A stretch of 64,000 nucleotides of DNA from NCBI GenBank assembly GCA_020073085.1, contig JAIQFV010000002.1:376875-440874 (forward strand), given 5' to 3'. The DNA comes from Terriglobia bacterium (GTDB lineage: Bacteria > Acidobacteriota > Terriglobia > JAIQFV01). The notes under the pieces are model-generated. The model saw only the letters and a list, made by a program, of their open reading frames with translations, had not been told where the DNA came from and ran no database searches. The translations under genes and the position numbers were made by a program. Each line of letters begins with the position of its first letter. The first letter of the stretch is position 1. Positions 1,932 through 62,933 of this stretch are shown here, one piece after another.

Positions 1932-4403
1932 ATGCTCAGTAAAATCACCAGTTATCAATTCTCCGAGTTCGTTTTAGACGTCGCAGAACGCTGTCTGAAA
2001 AAGGAAAGCCAGCAGATCTATCTGCCCCCGAAGACCTTTGCAACCCTCTTGTACTTAATTGAACGGCCTGGCCGCCTCGTCAAGAAAGAGGAACTTCTCG
2101 ACGACCTCTGGCCGGATGCCGAGGTGACCGAGAACGCGTTGACCCGATGTATCAAGGAAGTCCGCGAGGCGCTTCAGGATGATGTGCATGACCCCCGCTA
2201 CATCAAGACCGTCCCCCGGGTGGGATACAAGTTCATCGCTGAAGTGGAGCCGGTTCGAGAAGCCACTCCCGTCACGGTCGTCGAGGAGGAACTGACTGCG
2301 ATGAGGGTGAAGGTCACGGATGAAGTGAATGGGGAGTTGCCATCCCCTCCTGACACCCGGACGCTCCCTGCGGAATCGTCCATGCTCGCGCTACCTGCCG
2401 CACCCGAAGGCCGGCTGAATCGATCCCGTTGGAAGGGCGCCGTTGGCATTGCCTTGACAGTTTTCACGGTATTGGCAGGGGCCTGGTATTACACCCGCGG
2501 ACGCAAGGCCTCCTTGGGTTTTGCGGAACGCGACTGGGTCCTGATCGCGGACTTTGAGAATCTCACCGGGGAAAAGGTGTTTGACGCGGCACTGCGAACG
2601 GCGTTGGAACGTGAACTGAGCCGCTCTCGTTACGTAAACTACGTGCCTCAGGGAAGAGTCTTCGACACCCTCGCTCTGATGAAACGCAGTGCCGATACCC
2701 GGGTTAATGAATCCGTGGGCCGAGAAGTGTGCTTGCGAGACGGGAATATCCGGGCACTTCTGGTGGGTGCCATCCAGCAGATCGGTGGTATCTACGCCAT
2801 CAACTTGAAGGTGATCGATCCGAAAACAGGGGTAGCGGTGAACAGTCTGGCCGAAGAAGCGGCGAATTTACAGGGGGTTCTCCCCGCGATTCGCCGACTG
2901 GCGGTGACGCTGCGAGAGACACTGGGCGAATCACTGGCTTCCATTTCCAAATCGGATCAGCAACTGGAACGGGTGACCACGCCTTCACTGGAGGCGTTGG
3001 AGGCTTATTCGAAGGGATTGCGTTTGAACGAGCAAGTTCAGTGGCCACAGGCGCTGGTTTTTCTTGATCAGGCTGTTGAACGGGACCCCAACTTTGCCAT
3101 GGCTCACTGGGCTCGCGGCTGGACGCATCATTGGACGCGAAGGCCATTCGTGGCAGATTTCAATCGGGCCGCCGAGCTGGTGGGTGGGGTCACCGATCGG
3201 GAGAAGTACACCATTCTGGGAACGCAAGCGCTCTACTGTTTCGGCGATCTCCCTCGGGCCATTGAAATCCAGGAACGCCTTCTTCAGTTGTATCCCGACG
3301 ATTACCATGCGAACGAGACCGTCGGTCGGCTCTATCTGGCGTTGGGAGATATGTCGCGATGGAGAGAGTGCTCTAAAAAAAGCGAGCGCATCCGTCCCAA
3401 CTTTACAGGCAATCACTTTGAGAACGCCGTCGTCGCACTCTTTTCGGAGAGTGACGTCGAAAGGTATTATTCGGAATCCATGCAAGTTCTCGCCCTGAAC
3501 CCCAATTACCCCGGAGGAGGCCCGCACGTGGCGGACCCCGTTCGGGACTGGATGCGTGGTGACGTGGCTCAGGCGCAGGAGAAAATTTCCAAATTCCGTG
3601 CGGGGGAAATGGCTTCGGCCTTGGGCCCGGCCTTTCAAATAAGCGTCCGCCCCTTTCTGGCCCGCTTCTATCTCTTCATCGGAAAACCGGAGGTGGCACT
3701 CGAGCTGCTTGAAACGACCCGTGGAATGGCGCCGCTAAACGCGACCGTCGATTTTTCAAAATACTGGCAACTGGAAAGAGCACTCATCTATCGAGAGCAA
3801 GGCAATGTCCGTGAATTTGAGCGCTTGGCCGGTAGCGCCGCATCGGAAGGAGTGGGAATCTCCCGGGTGGAAGCCCTCGGATGGCTGGCCATTGCTTCGG
3901 CCCAATCAGGTCGCTCCAATCAGGCCCTTGCCTTTCAAAATGAGCTTCTGAAAGAAGACCGCCTCCCGCCCGTTGGTTTTTTTAGTCCGCCGTTGCCTCG
4001 GGAGTTGGAACGTGCCAAACGCGCCTTTAGCCTTCAGATCGAGGGAGAAGTCGCGCTGAAAGACGGAAACCTGGATCAGGCAATTTCTCGCTTCAAGGGA
4101 GTGATCGATCTGGTTCCGCCTCAAGGGGTGTTTTTCACGACCAACCTTCAACCGCAGTTGTTTTTCGTGGCAAATCAATCACTGGCCGAGGCATTCGAAA
4201 AGAGAGGCGAGTGGGGGGAGGCGGTCAAAGCCGACGAAGCGATTCTCGCACAAAAGACTCAGACTATCGGAGTTACTGGAGCAGCACAGATTTGGGTGAA
4301 GGCGTTGAACTCCGCGGGCGAGGCCCTTGAGAAGATGGGAGAGACGTCACGGGCGGCCGTCTACCACGAGCAGTATCGCCAATTGCGGCCGGGGAGCAGC
4401 TAA
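1932..4403 (+). CDS. membrane-anchored winged-helix transcriptional regulator (CadC/ToxR-like, OmpR/PhoB-type DNA-binding domain) with periplasmic TPR-like domain
   Basis: N-terminal sequence with conserved W and RVGYKF typical of trans_reg_C winged helix; single TM segment (AVGIALTVFTVLAGAWYY); long C-terminal region; alternative GTG start at 1908. Confidence 0.7.
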   Translation: MLSKITSYQFSEFVLDVAERCLKKESQQIYLPPKTFATLLYLIERPGRLVKKEELLDDLWPDAEVTENALTRCIKEVREALQDDVHDPRYIKTVPRVGYKFIAEVEPVREATPVTVVEEELTAMRVKVTDEVNGELPSPPDTRTLPAESSMLALPAAPEGRLNRSRWKGAVGIALTVFTVLAGAWYYTRGRKASLGFAERDWVLIADFENLTGEKVFDAALRTALERELSRSRYVNYVPQGRVFDTLALMKRSADTRVNESVGREVCLRDGNIRALLVGAIQQIGGIYAINLKVIDPKTGVAVNSLAEEAANLQGVLPAIRRLAVTLRETLGESLASISKSDQQLERVTTPSLEALEAYSKGLRLNEQVQWPQALVFLDQAVERDPNFAMAHWARGWTHHWTRRPFVADFNRAAELVGGVTDREKYTILGTQALYCFGDLPRAIEIQERLLQLYPDDYHANETVGRLYLALGDMSRWRECSKKSERIRPNFTGNHFENAVVALFSESDVERYYSESMQVLALNPNYPGGGPHVADPVRDWMRGDVAQAQEKISKFRAGEMASALGPAFQISVRPFLARFYLFIGKPEVALELLETTRGMAPLNATVDFSKYWQLERALIYREQGNVREFERLAGSAASEGVGISRVEALGWLAIASAQSGRSNQALAFQNELLKEDRLPPVGFFSPPLPRELERAKRAFSLQIEGEVALKDGNLDQAISRFKGVIDLVPPQGVFFTTNLQPQLFFVANQSLAEAFEKRGEWGEAVKADEAILAQKTQTIGVTGAAQIWVKALNSAGEALEKMGETSRAAVYHEQYRQLRPGSS

Positions 4404-54597: not shown

Positions 54598-54815
54598 TCC
54601 AATAAAACAAATTCCAGAATCCAATATCCAAAGTCCAAATAAAAACCAAATTCCAATGCACAAACTCCAAGGGAAGCCGATTCGCAATGCTTATATTTCG
54701 GTTCCCTTAAGGGCTTCACAGATGGTGGCCGGTCGTACCCATTCCTTCGTTTTAAGTGTTTTGAATTTGGTCCTTGGAATTTATTTGGACTTTGGATATT
54801 GGATTTTGGAATTTC
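54598..54815. repeat. bipartite intergenic element (TCCAATATCCAAAG / TTTGGATATTGGA flavour)
   Basis: Left arm tccaataaaacaaattccagaatccaatatccaaagtccaaataaa pairs with right arm ttatttggactttggatattggattttggaatttcc; immediately followed by the tandem array. Confidence 0.75.
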
Positions 54816-55250
54816 CACCGATGGGATGTTCAAAATTCAGACTGAAGGTGGCGGGTTTGGAATTTGTTTATTGGGATTTGGTTCTTATTTGGGTTTTGGA
54901 GTTTGGAATTTGGATTTTCCGCCAATGGGATGTTCAAAATTCAGACTGAAGGTGGCGGGTTTGGAATTTGCTTATTGGGATTTGGTTCTTATTTGGATTT
55001 TGGAGTTTGGAATTTGGATTTTCCGCCGATGGGATGTTCAAAGTTTGGACTGAAGGTGGCGGGTTTGGAATTTGCTTGCTGGAATTTGGATTTTGGAGTT
55101 TGGAATTTGGATTTTCCGCCGATGGGATGTTCAAAATTCAGACTGAAGGTGGCGGGTTTGGAATTTGCTTGCTGGAATTTGGATTTTGGAGTTTGGAATT
55201 TGGATTTTCCGCCGATGGGATGTTCAAAATTCAGACTGAAGGTGGCGGGT
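54816..55250. repeat. tandem array: five copies of a 36 bp core at 93-104 bp spacing
   Basis: Core GATGGGATGTTCAAAATTCAGACTGAAGGTGGCGGG recurs at about 54820, 54924, 55028, 55121 and 55214; inter-core sequence is low-complexity TTTGGAATTTGG...GGATTTTCC and nearly identical between units. Confidence 0.85.
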
Positions 55251-58089: not shown

Positions 58090-58280
58090 GAAGATGTTTC
58101 CCCCCAAGGAATTAAGGAGGCGTTGTTTTCAAAGAGGAACAAAGTGGCGGGGTGCCGCAGGCATGTCCACCGAGGCGGATGCCTGCGTCTGCCGTCCTGT
58201 AGACAATCGGTGGGCGTGGCCCTCAGGGCAATTTTCGGGCTCCCTCGGACAGAGAAGGAACGCGTGACGGACCAGTCTTC

Positions 58281-58310
58281 GCAGACATGCAAAAAACACA
58301 TGCGTGCGAC
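58281..58310. repeat. REP-like imperfect hairpin (GCAGACATGC...CATGCGTGCG)
   Basis: GCAGAC-core imperfect inverted repeat, same family as 17984-18017. Confidence 0.35.
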
Positions 58311-58325
58311 ACCCAGTATTTTCCT

Positions 58326-58440
58326 GGATTGGAAATTGGAAAGGTCTGACCCGAGAATTGGGATTGGAAATTGGAAAGGTCTGACCCGAGAATTCTTGCT
58401 GGATTGGAAATTGGAAAGGTCTGACCCGAGAATTCTTGTT
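58326..58440. repeat. 3 x about 40 bp tandem repeat (GGATTGGAAATTGGAAAGGTCTGACCCGAGAATTCTTGCT)
   Basis: Three near-identical units at about 58326, 58361 and 58401. Confidence 0.85.
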
Positions 58441-58575
58441 GTACATGCCTGCGTCTGGGTGGTGCGCGCCTTCGGGATACTCAATGACGACGAGATGTGG
58501 ACTATCGTCCATTACATCCGGCACCTTCCTGCGAAGGGCAGTCTCGGCGAGCCCAGAGTCTATAACTCGGCTTTT

Positions 58576-59823
58576 TCACTTGGTCGGCACCCAATTCTCC
58601 AGGAACCCTTTTCCTCCGGCTTTTTCCCGCTCTTCGACGAGAGCCTGAAAGATGGCGCGCAACTGGGCATAGGGCAGAGTTCCGATGATCATCCGGTTAT
58701 TGATGATCAGGGTAGGAGTGGAGCGGATGCCGTGTGCGTACTTTTCTGAGGTCTTTTCGTACTCGCTGCCGGTATTAGTAATCCGCTGGACGAGCTCCTT
58801 CGTCTTCGGGTCATTAAGTGCACCTTCGACCTGGTATCTCTTCGCCAGGGCAATTCGCCAGACCGGATCCTTGGCTTTTTCGAAATTCGCGAAGATCTCA
58901 TCATGGATTTGCGTAAACTTGGCCGGGTCGTAGGCCGCCAGGTAGGCGAGATCGCAGGCCCCCGGATGCTTGTCCTTCTCGACCACCTGGTTACACCGGG
59001 CCTCCAGCGGGAAGAACTGGTAGGCGACATTGATCTTCCCCTTGAATTCCTCCTTGAGCTTCCCCATCTGCTGCGTCAGAAAAAGACAGTCCGGGCAGAG
59101 AAAATCGGCGTACTCGATGATCTGGATGGGGGCGTCCTCAAACTTATCGGTCGACCGGATGGTTCGGTACGGTGAAATCAGGCTGGGGGACTTCACCACG
59201 GCCAGATTGTAGTATTGAGTCACCACCCGCGCGGCCACACCACCGGATTGCGCATCCCGCCGGGCATGATGAAAAAGAACCATCCCGTAAGCGCCGAGCA
59301 GCGTGACAATGGCAAACGTCGCCAGATGCTTCAGGGAGGGGCTGACATATCTCGAGATCCATCCTGGGCTCTCACGGTCGATTCCGTATCTCCAAAAAAG
59401 GGCGAAGCTGGCGATGGAGAAAAGATAGTAGCCGGTACACAGAAGACACAAGCTCTTGAGATAAAGGACCGAGAAGAGAAACAGCCCGGCCACACCTGCA
59501 AAATTGGCGATCGAAAGCGTCCTGTTGGTTCGTTCCAGATCGGCCGAGGGGAATACTGCTCCCAGGGAGACCAGGGCCCCGACGAGAAGACCAAAGTATC
59601 CCAGCGGGACGCCTCGCACTTGAGAGATGACTGAAAATGCGGAACTTTCGCAGTTAAAGAAGGAATTGATGTCACAAAACGAACCGGCATAGATGGAGGT
59701 CGGGTAGTTTGCCAGGAAGAAATGCCGGATCGTCAGGACAGAGAAAACCATCATTCCCAATCCGAAGAGAAAGCTTAGCATTCGAGACCAGGCCTTGCCA
59801 TTCAGGGTTAAGGATTCTTGCAT
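58576..59823 (-). CDS. vitamin K epoxide reductase (VKOR) family protein fused to a DsbA-like thioredoxin domain
   Basis: N-terminal multi-TM VKOR-like region with Cys pairs (CDINSFFNC, CLLC); C-terminal thioredoxin fold with CPDC active site. Confidence 0.7.
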   Translation of the reverse strand: MQESLTLNGKAWSRMLSFLFGLGMMVFSVLTIRHFFLANYPTSIYAGSFCDINSFFNCESSAFSVISQVRGVPLGYFGLLVGALVSLGAVFPSADLERTNRTLSIANFAGVAGLFLFSVLYLKSLCLLCTGYYLFSIASFALFWRYGIDRESPGWISRYVSPSLKHLATFAIVTLLGAYGMVLFHHARRDAQSGGVAARVVTQYYNLAVVKSPSLISPYRTIRSTDKFEDAPIQIIEYADFLCPDCLFLTQQMGKLKEEFKGKINVAYQFFPLEARCNQVVEKDKHPGACDLAYLAAYDPAKFTQIHDEIFANFEKAKDPVWRIALAKRYQVEGALNDPKTKELVQRITNTGSEYEKTSEKYAHGIRSTPTLIINNRMIIGTLPYAQLRAIFQALVEEREKAGGKGFLENWVPTK

Positions 59824-59961
59824 GTGGACCTGCCTGATGATGTTGGATTGGAACAACTTGGCAATGCCGAAGAGGCTTAGGAGAGGAGTTCCTAGATTCG
59901 TCCGGACCGCCGCGCTCGCTTACTGCGTTCAATCAGAAGATTGAATTTCATACACCCCCAT

Positions 59962-60475
59962 CAGGCCCGAAGGGCTGTCAGACTGTAGCCCCACCTGAAG
60001 CTCCGTCCCGCGTTCTTTGCGGGGCGGAGCGAGGGTGGGGTGCCAGTCTCCCCAATGATATCCGAGCCCCGCTGGCGGGGCGAAAGAATCTACCGAATGG
60101 TTCTTCGGACAACCCTACAATAATCCCCTGGCATGTTCCTCTCCGCACTGCTTTCTCTACCCCACGTTACCCTTACTCGTTTCACGAATTAGTGGACCCC
60201 AATTTCACCAGTCGAATTCTCGCAACGATATCGGAACAGTCGAGTTCTTCCTGGCAGCGGGAGCGCCCTCGGAAGATCTTGTTTCAGTGAGAGTGGCGTC
60301 CTCATTCCGAGTGCATGGAATCGAATATGTCATTCGGTGTACTTCGACCTGACGACATTGTTTCGCCCCGCAAGCGGGGCTCTCACATTTTCTCACCTCG
60401 GTACCCCACCCTCGCTCTCCGCCTACGGCGGACGGAGCTTCAGGTGGGGCTACAATCTGACAGCCCTTCGGGCCT
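59962..60475. mobile_element. about 515 bp non-coding element bounded by about 85 bp near-perfect terminal inverted repeats (MITE-like or structured RNA)
   Basis: Left end ggcccgaagggctgtcagactgtagccccacctgaagctccgtcc...cggagcgagggtggggtgcc is the reverse complement of the right end (60400-60475) apart from a few mismatches and one indel; each end also folds locally; sub-terminal hairpins GCCCCGC-tgg-CGGGGC and GCCCCGC-aa-GCGGGGC; no credible ORF. Confidence 0.5.
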
Positions 60476-60658
60476 AAAGGGCCAAAAGGGTTACTCGAGA
60501 AGCATCCACTAATGGGAATCGAATCTTCCTCCGACATTGATCGTGGCCTTCAACTTTGGAATTCGGGTCAACAGCGTTTCACCTCTTTGCTCGATCCCGT
60601 TCAGGGCGACCAGGCTGGTCGCCCTACCGCAGGGGTTCCAGCAACCGCTTGTGTCCCC

Positions 60659-61048
60659 TTATTTTTCCCGGTGATTTGAGTCCTTCCCCTCCGATTCCTT
60701 TGCTGAATCCAGCTTCCAGCCCTCCCGGATCGTGGTGCCCCCGCAGTAGGTCTTCGGGCAGCGGACATCATTCAGGCATTGCAGGATGGGGTTGCACGCA
60801 TCTTCCGCCGACTCGTCTTCCTTCATCGGGGCAGACTCTTTGCACGCGCCTGAATAGGCCGGATTGGTGAAAGTGCACATCGCCGTGGTGGCATTCGTAC
60901 TCAAACGCGGCAAAGGGACAGGACAAGAGCCGCCAAACAACGGGGTGGCGGCCACAATCAGGACCAGACAAGCCGCCATCGTGATAAGGAATGGGGATGT
61001 GTTGATAGATTTTGAGTCAACTGAAAGAGAATGACAAACACGCTTCAT
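60659..61048 (-). CDS. hypothetical Cys-rich secreted protein
   Basis: Signal peptide (MKRVCHSLSVDSKSINTSPFLITMAACLVLIVAA), ten or more Cys in the mature part; AAGGAGGAACC ribosome-binding site. Confidence 0.4.
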   Translation of the reverse strand: MKRVCHSLSVDSKSINTSPFLITMAACLVLIVAATPLFGGSCPVPLPRLSTNATTAMCTFTNPAYSGACKESAPMKEDESAEDACNPILQCLNDVRCPKTYCGGTTIREGWKLDSAKESEGKDSNHREK

Positions 61049-61072
61049 GGTTCCTCCTTTGAATCCCGGTCC

Positions 61073-61205
61073 TCGACTAATACGAACGTCGTTGAAAATG
61101 TACAAAATCGTGCGCGATTCAACGTAGGGGCGCATAGTCCGCCGCGGCGGACGCCCCTACAGCGAAGATTCCACAACTACCCCATGTAACTCTAATTCTA
61201 ACGTG
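61073..61205. repeat. about 130 bp repeat, copy 2 (GC hairpin with 5 nt bulge)
   Basis: Aligns with 8153-8282; hairpin GGGGCG-catag-TCCGCCGC/GCGGCGGACGCCCC and shared tgtaactcta; begins about 25 bp upstream of the start codon of the 60659-61048 gene. Confidence 0.7.
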
Positions 61206-61337
61206 TGTATTAAAAGGCCAGTAAAATCTCACAGGATACACGTGAATGAATGGCCATAATCAAATTGTTCCTGGAGGGACACCTCATCGACCAACCATGA
61301 AGAAGACCGCTCATTCAGCGTGACCGCATTCAAGGAT

Positions 61338-62933
61338 TCAACTTATCGCATCCCTTGAAAAAGTCCCGTCGACCATCCGTGAGATCCCCAGCGGGTTATT
61401 GTCCTTGAGTTCGTCGGGCAGGGCCGTCTCCGGAAAGGATTGATAGCACACGGGCCTTACAAAGCGATAGATGGCTCGAGCACCGACGGAAGTTGTACGT
61501 CCATCTGAGGTTGCGGGATAGGGTCCCCCGTGCACCATGGCGTTCGAGACCTCGACGCCCGTGGGGAAGCCATTGAAGATCAGCCGGCCCACCCTGGTTT
61601 CCAGGATCGCCAGGAGGTCCCTGAACTCTTCGAGATCCTTCTCGGTCCCATGGAGCGTCGCTGTGAGTTGTCCCTCCATCGTCCGCGCTACGTCCAGCAA
61701 TTGCTCCCGGTTTGAATGCATAACCAGCAGTGTCGTGGGACCGAAGATTTCTGCGCTCAGTTCGGGATGAGAGAGGTACGATGCTGCGTCGACAAGAAAA
61801 AGAGCCGGGCCGGCCTGGCAGCCCCCAGGTGCAGTGCGGATCGTATGCCCGACGACAGTCTTGACGCCACGGCGTTCCGACCGGGCTGACACTGCGGCAT
61901 GATACGCGGAGGAGATGCCCGGCGTGAGCATGGTGAACTCCCCGAAATTTCCCATCAGGGCCCGCATTTTTTCCACAAAAGCATCCCCCTCCGCGTCCTT
62001 CGCCATCACTACCAATCCTGGATTCGTGCAGAACTGGCCCGCGCCCAGTGTCACCGAACTGCTCAATCCTGCCGCGATTTGATCCCGTTTTTCCCGCATC
62101 GCGCCGGGAAGAATGAAAACAGGGTTGACGCTGCTCATTTCGGCGAAGAACGGAATGGGAACGGGTCGGGATGAAACCGCACCCATCAATGCAAGGCCAC
62201 CGGAGCGCGATCCCGTAAAGGCGGCAGCCCTTACCAACGGATGTTTGACGAGCGCTGTCCCGATTTCAAATCCGGCATCGTACAGAAGCGAGAAGACACC
62301 TTCGGGGAGGTGGCAGTCGCGCACGGCATCCTGGACTGCCCGTCCCACCAGTTCGGAGGTTCCGGGATGGGCGGGGTGTGCCTTCACGATGACGGGATTC
62401 CCCGCTGCCAGCGCCGAAGCGGTATCGCCGCCCGCTACCGAAAATGCCAGAGGGAAATTGCTCGAACCAAACACGGCCACCGGACCCAGGGGCCTAAACA
62501 GGGACCGGACATCCGGCCGGCGTTGAGGCTCGCGGTGGGGGTCGCCTCGATCGATCCGGGCATCAATCCACGAGCCCTCTTCAACCAGATCAGCAAAGAG
62601 CCGCAGCTGATGGCAGGTGCGACCGATCTCGGTTTGAATCCGAGCCGCCGGCAAGCCGGTCTCCTGGGGAGTGCGCACGAGAAGAAGTTCTCTAAGGCCG
62701 TCAACACGATCTGCAACCATGCGGAGAAACACTGCTTTCTCTCGGCCTGAAGCGTGGCTGTAAACCGCGAATGCTCGAGCTGCCAGCTCCACGGCTTCGC
62801 CGACTTCCTCCAGACTGGCGGAATAATAGGCCGGGGGGATCTGTTCACCGGTCGCTGGATTAATGCCATACAGGACCTTGCCTTGAAATGTCCCAGGGTG
62901 AAATCCGATGATCGACCTGCCAGTGAGTTCCAC
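61338..62933 (-). CDS. NAD(P)-dependent aldehyde dehydrogenase (alpha-ketoglutarate-semialdehyde dehydrogenase-like)
   Basis: Aldehyde dehydrogenase family with catalytic Cys region (GAGQFCTNPG) and Glu region (FAEMSSVNP); GTG start with AAGGAGGG ribosome-binding site overlapping the upstream stop. Confidence 0.85.
   Translation of the reverse strand: MELTGRSIIGFHPGTFQGKVLYGINPATGEQIPPAYYSASLEEVGEAVELAARAFAVYSHASGREKAVFLRMVADRVDGLRELLLVRTPQETGLPAARIQTEIGRTCHQLRLFADLVEEGSWIDARIDRGDPHREPQRRPDVRSLFRPLGPVAVFGSSNFPLAFSVAGGDTASALAAGNPVIVKAHPAHPGTSELVGRAVQDAVRDCHLPEGVFSLLYDAGFEIGTALVKHPLVRAAAFTGSRSGGLALMGAVSSRPVPIPFFAEMSSVNPVFILPGAMREKRDQIAAGLSSSVTLGAGQFCTNPGLVVMAKDAEGDAFVEKMRALMGNFGEFTMLTPGISSAYHAAVSARSERRGVKTVVGHTIRTAPGGCQAGPALFLVDAASYLSHPELSAEIFGPTTLLVMHSNREQLLDVARTMEGQLTATLHGTEKDLEEFRDLLAILETRVGRLIFNGFPTGVEVSNAMVHGGPYPATSDGRTTSVGARAIYRFVRPVCYQSFPETALPDELKDNNPLGISRMVDGTFSRDAIS

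Follow-up and report, generated by a model that had tools for sequence, protein, structure and literature searches.

Insertion sequences of the IS200/IS605 family insert 3′ of a fixed tetra- or pentanucleotide without target-site duplication. Their ends are not long inverted repeats, and both of their hairpins act on the same strand. Recognition and cleavage of hairpins in single-stranded DNA (ssDNA) are established in vitro biochemistry for TnpA of IS608 and ISDra2, and gene-less derivatives of the family, such as palindrome-associated transposable elements (PATEs) and miniature inverted-repeat transposable elements (MITEs) of the family, are a known kind. Here we describe an element of 615 bp at positions 59953–60567 (+ strand) of the window, by which we mean the whole stretch of 64,000 nucleotides that was analysed (Terriglobia bacterium, Acidobacteriota; contig JAIQFV010000002.1, positions 376,875 to 440,874). 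Very probably, it descends by decay from a small Y1 (HUH) tyrosine-transposase element of the IS200 / REPtron-TIRtron type that occurs in a Terriglobia clade, and it is itself non-autonomous. The kind is already known; what is notable is that GTAG-footed arms surround a subclass-1.2-type gene in Acidobacteriota, that a gene-dead unit multiplied, and that the interior was inverted recurrently.

Repetitive extragenic palindromes (REPs) occupy extragenic space in tens to hundreds of copies per genome. REPs, their compound forms (bacterial interspersed mosaic elements, BIMEs, and REPINs), REP-associated tyrosine transposases (RAYTs) and REPtrons have been described in detail (Nunvar 2010; Bertels & Rainey 2011, PMC3116915; Ton-Hoang 2012, PMC3333891). 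A REP is defined as an imperfect palindrome with GTAG at its 5′ foot (PMC3333891; also in passages of PMC3733652), and binding and cleavage by E. coli TnpA-REP, shown in vitro, require both the GTAG and the imperfect palindrome (PMC3333891). REPtrons are held to be immobile as units (PMC3333891, PMC6006769). In TIRtrons, as set out in passages of Di Nocera et al. 2013 (PMC3733652), the Y1 gene, encoding a TIRYT, lies between long terminal inverted repeats (TIRs) with self-complementary tracts, and the TIRs constitute moderately abundant repeat families that occur as singles, dimers or clusters. The same passages delimit a sharply defined Acidobacteria-specific TIRYT group in Terriglobus, Koribacter, Acidobacterium and Granulicella (tsa392, aba1552/3447, acp645 and gma794). 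The TnpAY1 subclass 1.2 (Quentin et al. 2018, PMC6006769) has been described without terminal structures of the kind reported here.

The inverted repeat of the window element is real and was confirmed in the sequence. A repeat search of the window located inverted arms of 57 nt at 59957–60013 and 60425–60481 (91% complementary) and, nested inside them, inverted pairs at 60027–60044/60400–60417 (94%) and 60064–60089/60357–60382 (92%). A 45-nt arm probe occurred at only two places in the 64 kb, with none expected from 100 shuffles, and the window holds one element of the family only. An earlier note, made from the letters alone, had reported a near-perfect inverted repeat of about 85 bp and an extent of 59962–60475 (~515 bp). 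The repeat is present, and the outer 48 nt of the arms are identical at 47 of 48 positions; over ~130–149 nt, however, the arms are 74% identical with gaps, and hairpin B has unlike interiors in the two arms, with two gaps of 3 nt. The extent had been drawn too short, as a 92-nt extension on the right was left out. The true bounds come from the comparison of orthologous loci (loci in other genomes are given here by L numbers): homology to L018, L020 and L023 ends at 59951 and restarts at ~60568–60576, and the right end of the element corresponds to a terminus, ...CTTTGGAATTCGGG, that is common to L005, L006, L009 and L024.

The unit reads arm, leader, transposase-gene remnant, arm and outer extension, and each arm is a mosaic of three hairpins, A, B and C. 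Hairpin A (GGCCCGAAGGGCT) lies at 59964–59976 in the left arm (GGCCC-GAA-GGGCT, + strand) and at 60462–60474 in the right arm (AGCCC-TTC-GGGCC, − strand). Hairpin B is an imperfect palindrome of 46–52 nt with a conserved GTAG in front. In the left arm, the GTAG occupies 59985–59988 (+) and is followed at 59989–60040 (+) by a 52-nt hairpin, CCCCACC...GGGTGGGG, with the interior variant termed 'medium'; in the inverted right arm, repeat search, probe and sequence place a hairpin of 46 nt and the ensuing CTAC, which is the minus-strand GTAG (60450–60453), at 60404–60453 (−). Hairpin C (GCCCCGC..GCGGGGC) was found at 60066–60081 (GCCCCGC TG GCGGGGC), where it adjoins the leader, and, by repeat search and sequence, at 60365–60380 (GCCCCGC AA GCGGGGC; both on +). 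The earlier note was right that each end folds on itself (59989–60040 and 60404–60449) and that symmetric GC hairpins lie inside the ends. The outer extension, ext1 (60476–60567, +), has 92 nt, ends in ...CTTCAACTTTGGAATTCGGG, and matches the flank outside the arm in L005, L006, L009, L010 and L024 at 81–88% identity. In these five loci it is always joined to an arm and is part of the repeated unit. A T-arm-like stretch, GGAAGATTCGATTCC, in ext1 prompted a scan for tRNA and tmRNA genes, which found none in the window.

The hairpins are maintained across the family. GTAG stands before hairpin B in 30 of the 35 distinct aligned units, and the remainder have ATAG, GAAG or AAAG. The three helices tested were 96% paired, as against 40–61% when the partner was slid by 1–3 columns (hairpin A, 96%; outer stem of hairpin B, 98%). 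Four pairs have changed on both sides, for example CCCCACC/GGGTGGGG versus CCCCGTC/GGGCGGGG. Hairpin A has two double-change pairs among the 35 units, GGCCC/GGGCC versus GGTCC/GGACC, and the outer stem of hairpin B shows a compensatory change from A-T to G-C in the Bvar subfamily. The double changes come mostly from one subfamily and therefore represent few events. Retention of hairpins through compensatory changes is a property shared with REPs and REPtrons.

The same arms surround intact transposase genes in related Terriglobia metagenome-assembled genomes (MAGs), at L011/L027, L030 and L032, so that the cognate transposase that the earlier note had proposed to look for elsewhere was indeed found. 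In L011, two inverted arms lie 610 bp apart with an open reading frame (ORF) of 150 aa between them (192 aa in the mechanical ORF list). L027, L030 and L032 have one layout: A-B-C, a leader of ~110 nt, the gene, and C′-B′-A′, with arms of ~125 nt; in L032, the C hairpins are separated by ~625 bp. The L011 protein matches Pfam Y1_Tnp (PF01797; 1.6e-21) and, just above the cut-off of 55 bits, NCBIfam transpos_IS200 (58 bits). Its homologues at E<=1e-20 number 2126 and are labelled 'RayT' (JGI, many) or 'IS200/IS605 family transposase' (NCBI). The closest solved structures are of ISDra2-type TnpA (2FYX, 2XM3), and E. coli TnpA-REP is absent among the PDB matches at E<=1. The tyrosine motif KYIAGQEEHH fits the signature Y---Q--HH of TnpAY1 subclass 1.2, with which the protein also shares a length of ~150 aa and a conserved extra C-terminal segment; the RAYT signature, Y---NP, does not occur in it.

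These units share several properties with REPtrons, namely a Y1/HUH gene between inverted GTAG-footed imperfect palindromes (at the three intact loci; in the window, a remnant) and palindromes that are scattered intergenically as singles, inverted pairs and tandem arrays, in unit numbers that vary between close relatives. In contrast, the protein carries Y---Q--HH and not the Y---NP of RAYTs (class 2, PMC6006769), the hairpin measures 46–75 nt and the arm ~125 nt where a REP measures 20–40 nt, and the gene, single-copy in a REPtron, occurs here as at least two paralogues in one genome (GCA_041490505.1, at different loci, 91% and 84% identical to the L011 protein). A further difference from REPtrons is that a gene-dead unit has been copied whole to several loci.

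The likeness to TIRtrons is one of architecture: a Y1 gene lies between long TIRs, and these recur as singles, dimers and clusters. The TIRs, however, are described in passages of PMC3733652 as unrelated to GTAG REPs, whereas the arms in the present family include a GTAG-tagged hairpin. Neither a multiplied gene-deleted derivative nor an interior inversion was found in the passages of that paper that were searched. With IS200/IS605 the units have in common the transposase superfamily PF01797, an IS200-like size, hairpins at both ends, no duplication visible at L005, L024 or the window, and a tendency to decay into non-autonomous copies. They differ in their ends, which are inverted repeats of 125–215 nt, and in that no conserved target tetra- or pentanucleotide has been established. 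Unlike the described members of subclass 1.2, they occur in Terriglobia, in hairpin arms that form a repeat family.

The earlier note had described the element as non-coding with no convincing ORF. No convincing ORF exists, but the core is recognisable as the wreck of a transposase gene. The ~270-bp core retains the leader and codons ~70–98 and ~121–150 of the 150-aa Y1 protein up to the ancestral stop TGA (60350–60352), while the N-terminal part with the HUH motif and 23 aa with the catalytic Tyr are deleted. In the window, the remnant at 60177–60352 (+; tblastn, profile hidden Markov model (HMM) and consensus score) has acquired an in-frame stop and a 1-nt frameshift and reads ...SSWQRERPRKILFQ-stop-EW / SFRVHGIEYVIRCTST-stop. 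When the L011 protein was used as a tblastn query, it matched the cores of L009 (aa 73–150, E=3.8e-7), L012 (8e-4) and L005 (1e-3). The majority consensus of six cores reads in one frame as ELVEPNSTGWIHEAISGHWSFSWQRE-RPRKISFPQEWANSFRVQGIE-stop-DVRYTWT-stop and aligns to aa 73–98 and 122–150 with the same stop, a 23-residue gap taking out the catalytic tyrosine. A profile built from 116 homologues matched five copies at identical profile positions (73–97 and 119–149) and gave the consensus 27.5 bits (E=4.5e-7), whereas none of 3000 shuffled frames scored above 5.9 bits; Pfam returned nothing for the 63-aa consensus peptide.

The leader is preserved as well. In the window it spans 95 nt (60082–60176, +) and is homologous to the untranslated region of the intact Y1 genes, from hairpin C to the start codon; in L027 and L032, the same hairpin C immediately precedes the leader of the intact gene. 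When the family consensus was aligned locally with the region upstream of the L027, L030 and L032 genes, the scores were 53, 35 and 45, where the maxima of 500 shuffles were 33, 28 and 23. Judged by sequence, the core is a Y1 pseudogene, and its leader is homologous to that of the intact genes.

Copies of the element form a dispersed multi-copy family, in agreement with the earlier note, which had suggested a non-autonomous, palindrome-associated transposable element and a search for further copies. An exact 22-mer from the arm was present at 13 loci in 3 Terriglobia MAGs in a scan of representative genomes, including at least 7 contigs of one MAG. A profile HMM of the A-B part detected 46 units in 19 sources (~150 kb of loci), which were intergenic wherever examined. 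Many arm loci sit at contig ends, as expected of multi-copy repeats. In blastn searches, full-length copies with the ~270-bp core at 80–82% identity were found in L005 and its orthologue L012, L013, L009 and L010, along with a truncated copy (L006) and many solo arms of 75–125 nt, some of them clustered (L003, L004 and L007). The family is rare in the collections scanned. An arm 20-mer gave four matches in metagenomes, of which only L014, a shorter version with a core of ~100 nt, was real; it gave none in viral contigs, a metagenome scan with the core pattern TTCCTCYCCGCA N20-40 TCGTTTCACGAA gave none, and blastn against plasmid and phage collections gave no match.

Seven full-length or near-full-length copies (window, L005/L012, L013, L009, L010 and L024) carry the same deletions and differ by 1–3-nt indels only, and their flanks are unrelated except in orthologous pairs. 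These copies thus go back to a single progenitor whose gene was dead before it was copied, and it was in this dead state that the element multiplied, reaching six or more unrelated loci. Three MAGs differ, at an intergenic site that is orthologous among them, in the number of tandem A-B units (L002, 1; L003, 3; L004, ~1.5), and REP/BIME arrays behave likewise. A variant of hairpin B, GTAG CCCCGTCTGAGCCCCGCGC...GCGGGGCGAGGGCGGGG, also forms tandem arrays with a spacing of ~97–195 nt (L027, 1582–2353; L030, 2996–3469), with six copies in one of these genomes and three in the other at the corresponding place. In one MAG, the contig ends L009 6529–6669, L010 1–126 and L001 1–141 share a stretch of 126–141 nt that is 100% identical. 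We read this as assembly overlap at a repeat (k141 contig names), not as biology, and the likeness of the right-hand ends of the L009 and L010 copies is consequently not taken as real.

The comparison of assemblies also disposes of a fold-back artefact, which the earlier note had named as what would undo its reading. Inverted repeats at contig ends are common artefacts, and the contig of L022 ends inside the right arm. Yet an artefact would be a perfect palindrome, whereas the arms differ at ~26% of positions and their interiors are unlike. Moreover, the independent ENA contig L022 is 99.9% identical over 58275–60384, a span that takes in the left arm and the core and runs into the right arm, and the unique core is conserved at 80–88% in at least six other loci of five other assemblies. 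Assembly fold-back is thereby refuted, with practically no probability left to it.

A classical MITE, that is, a deletion derivative of a DDE insertion sequence moved as double-stranded DNA through its TIRs and leaving a target-site duplication, would likewise be small, non-coding and multi-copy with long terminal inverted repeats. In L005, the most complete copy, even the outermost ends are inverted (CCCGAATTCCAAAGTTGAAG versus CCTGAATTCCGAAATTAAGG, 18 of 23 positions). However, the sole gene found between such arms encodes a Y1 transposase, a family that makes no duplication, the core is itself a Y1 pseudogene, and no DDE transposase was seen in any locus. A target-site duplication was sought, as the earlier note had advised, and none flanks the L005, L024 or window copy. 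The flanks at the ext1 end (TTGA, TTAA, TGAT, TGAA and CAAG) vary too much for a target to be defined from so small a number. The MITE option offered by the earlier note stands as far as the element is non-autonomous and falls as to the classical DDE type, to which we give only the faintest probability.

The history of the locus was read from orthologues of the neighbouring VKOR-DsbA gene (82–89% identity), whose contigs were compared. VKOR-DsbA starts at the ATG at 59823 (415 aa, identical to database protein P0001) and not at the TTG at 59856 given in the mechanical list. In L018, L020, L023 (111 aa as called) and L024 (138 aa), a DJC28_CD gene (PF09350) is intact directly upstream of it, at a distance of 68 nt in the first three and 24 nt in L024, which suggests that DJC28_CD is a lost operon partner of VKOR-DsbA. 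In the window, only the last 19 codons and the stop remain (MKFNLLIERSKRARRSGRI, then stop; 59892–59951, − strand; junction alignment and translation). The first 92 of the 111 codons are lost, together with the outer extension of the element on one side, and 615 bp of the window stand in for ~565 bp of L020 that include those codons. The window's left flank, cagaagattgaatttcat, had been considered as a degenerate ext1; this was rejected, as the orthologous alignment showed the flank to be the original 3′ end of DJC28_CD.

Orthologous sites without the element were found in L018, L020, L023 and L025/26, which are empty sites of the kind that the earlier note had proposed to look for; the MAG of L020 carries the family elsewhere. 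L024 has the element at the same junction, beside the small upstream gene, with DJC28_CD intact, and there it displaces ~235 bp that in L020 hold a different GTAGCC... inverted pair. At the unoccupied sites of L020 (3440–3545) and L025 (~2760–2920, reverse strand) this GTAG-footed pair reads GTAGCCGCGATCCC...GGGATCGCGG / CCGTGATCCGC...GCGGATCACGGCTAC and has the appearance of a second REPIN-like family; the Y1-derived element took the place of that stretch both in L024 and in the window.

Relative to the flanks, the interior of the window element has the opposite orientation to that of L024. ext1 is on the leader side in L005, L006, L009, L010 and L024, and on the stop-codon side in the window only. 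In its inner part, the window's left arm resembles the arm of L024 on the ext1 side (87% identity) more than the opposite one (62%), and all four arms have the same outer 48 nt. The interior was therefore inverted, probably by an exchange within the outer, nearly identical part of the arms. Where ext1 stands with respect to the core had at one stage been treated as ambiguous, a view dropped when L024 revealed the inversion. A second inversion separates L027 and L030 (2250–3100 in each), which are orthologous and lie between TauE and zinc alcohol dehydrogenase genes. There the intact Y1 gene is inverted together with the leader and the C hairpins, and the outer arms and flanking genes are fixed.

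Two independent inversions at orthologous loci are what an inverton-like DNA switch would produce, in which the arms flip the interior and turn a neighbouring gene or the Y1 gene on or off. Both inversions, however, are fixed differences between lineages whose flanks are 7–16% apart. The units have no serine or tyrosine invertase beside them, promoter prediction gave no site within the invertible part, and inversion between inverted repeats of 48–130 nt is an expected by-product of homologous recombination. Such a switch seems very improbable. A different proposal is that the subclass-1.2 Y1 units of this clade are neither single-copy REPtrons nor ordinary IS200 elements, the whole unit being spread in trans, even when its gene is dead, and its interior flipped repeatedly, possibly by the Y1 enzyme at inverted GTAG sites and not by RecA. 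We hold this to be unlikely; if true, the units would work as an invertible cassette driven by a transposase and would stand, as a living intermediate, between insertion sequences and REP systems.

A decayed Y1 element is the reading that we prefer, and the following course of events would account for it. The intact unit is most likely an element of the IS200 superfamily whose ends turned into long inverted arms of REP-like hairpins. The window copy descends from a progenitor that already lacked codons 1–~68 (HUH motif) and ~99–121 (catalytic Tyr), and it cannot encode an enzyme of its own. By analogy with TnpA-REP and with IS608/ISDra2 TnpA, an intact paralogous Y1 enzyme might have propagated it in trans by acting on single-stranded GTAG hairpins: it would bind the folded hairpin with its GTAG foot, cut beside it and rejoin the ends, so that copy-out and paste-in would pass through ssDNA without target-site duplication. 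Such an activity could spread arms, arm pairs and whole arm-gene-arm units. In an ancestor that the window lineage shared with that of L024, one copy inserted between DJC28_CD and the gene for a small secreted protein. In the window lineage, everything between the outer 48-nt arm parts was then inverted, probably by homologous recombination between them, and one outer edge was deleted along with the first 92 DJC28_CD codons.

Since it has no enzyme and has lost one terminus, the window copy is regarded as an immobile relic, and today it is most likely inert. Its only effects, if any, would be the loss of DJC28_CD and a changed region upstream of VKOR-DsbA.

Several observations weigh against this reading. 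Taken alone, the window gave a non-significant tblastn match (60167–60349, E=9.7) and no reported profile domain; its assignment as a pseudogene depends on 81–82% DNA identity to better-preserved copies that do match. ext1 is absent from the three intact Y1 loci examined although it belongs to the copied unit, and the true autonomous parent of the subfamily has thus not been found. The unoccupied sites are not clean, as ~235 bp (L024) or ~565 bp (window) of L020 sequence were replaced. Paralogous copies are 12–19% diverged, which makes any activity old. No transposition event, excision junction or target-site rule was seen, and dispersal may have taken some other route.

The earlier note had also considered a large structured RNA gene, and the long helices might alternatively regulate VKOR-DsbA in cis, as RNA. 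The element immediately precedes that gene and folds far more stably than shuffled sequences (whole region, z = -15.7 on + and -13.0 on -). Hairpins A and B stay paired through changes that include G-U-compatible ones (of the 35 aligned units, 27 have CG and 8 have UG at pair 46-108, and 16 have GU at pair 9-21), and REP-type hairpins are known, from passages of PMC3733652, as stabilisers or attenuators of mRNA. In contrast, an Rfam scan of 59000–61500 gave nothing at E<=1, and the core is of protein-coding ancestry. The covariance check suggested in the earlier note gave a consensus fold of six cores in which 1 of 88 pairs was compensatory and the covariation term was unfavourable (+6.75), a result of low power with six sequences. 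At unrelated loci the arms are found singly, as tandem arrays and in both orientations, and four relatives keep VKOR-DsbA without the element at that site. A scan for sigma-70-like promoters and intrinsic terminators predicted nothing in the arms and one promoter-like site, 59864–59837 (−), in the DJC28 remnant. An RNA function is thus very improbable, and the structured RNA gene was not upheld.

The preferred reading, a decayed Y1 element, explains an 800-bp intergenic region that appears 'empty' in annotation, identifies the lost DJC28_CD and indicates that VKOR-DsbA now has a foreign upstream region. It also provides an Acidobacteriota example of GTAG-footed, REP-like hairpins around a Y1 gene of a subclass reported to lack such structures. 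A gene-dead arm-gene-arm unit was multiplied, though REPtrons are said not to move as units, and the interior was inverted at two separate loci. These observations bear on the origin of REP systems from insertion sequences, on the basis of a handful of metagenome-assembled loci and of a window element that is old and truncated.

Other repeats were noted in the same region. At 58149–58473, ~325 nt of a cytochrome c gene, which is intact (168–172 aa) in L018, L020 and L023, are replaced by another repeat, and the gene looks disrupted because no CxxCH motif is left. The L024 gene is called at 193 aa; the comparison over this stretch covered L018, L020 and L023. The repeat has inverted ends, CGCAGGCATGT (58156–58174) and ACATGCCTGCG (58435–58453), and holds three tandem units of 35–40 nt, GGATTGGAAATTGGAAAGGTCTGACCCGAGAATTC (58326–58440); a GCCGCAGGCATG...CATGCCTGCG hairpin also occurs in ~95-nt arrays in L002/L003. 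At 54750–55250 lies a tandem array with a 93-nt unit rich in TTTGGAATTTGGATTTTGG (3.8 copies, 91% identity), preceded by a degenerate copy, and short stretches akin to this array are present in L003 and L004.

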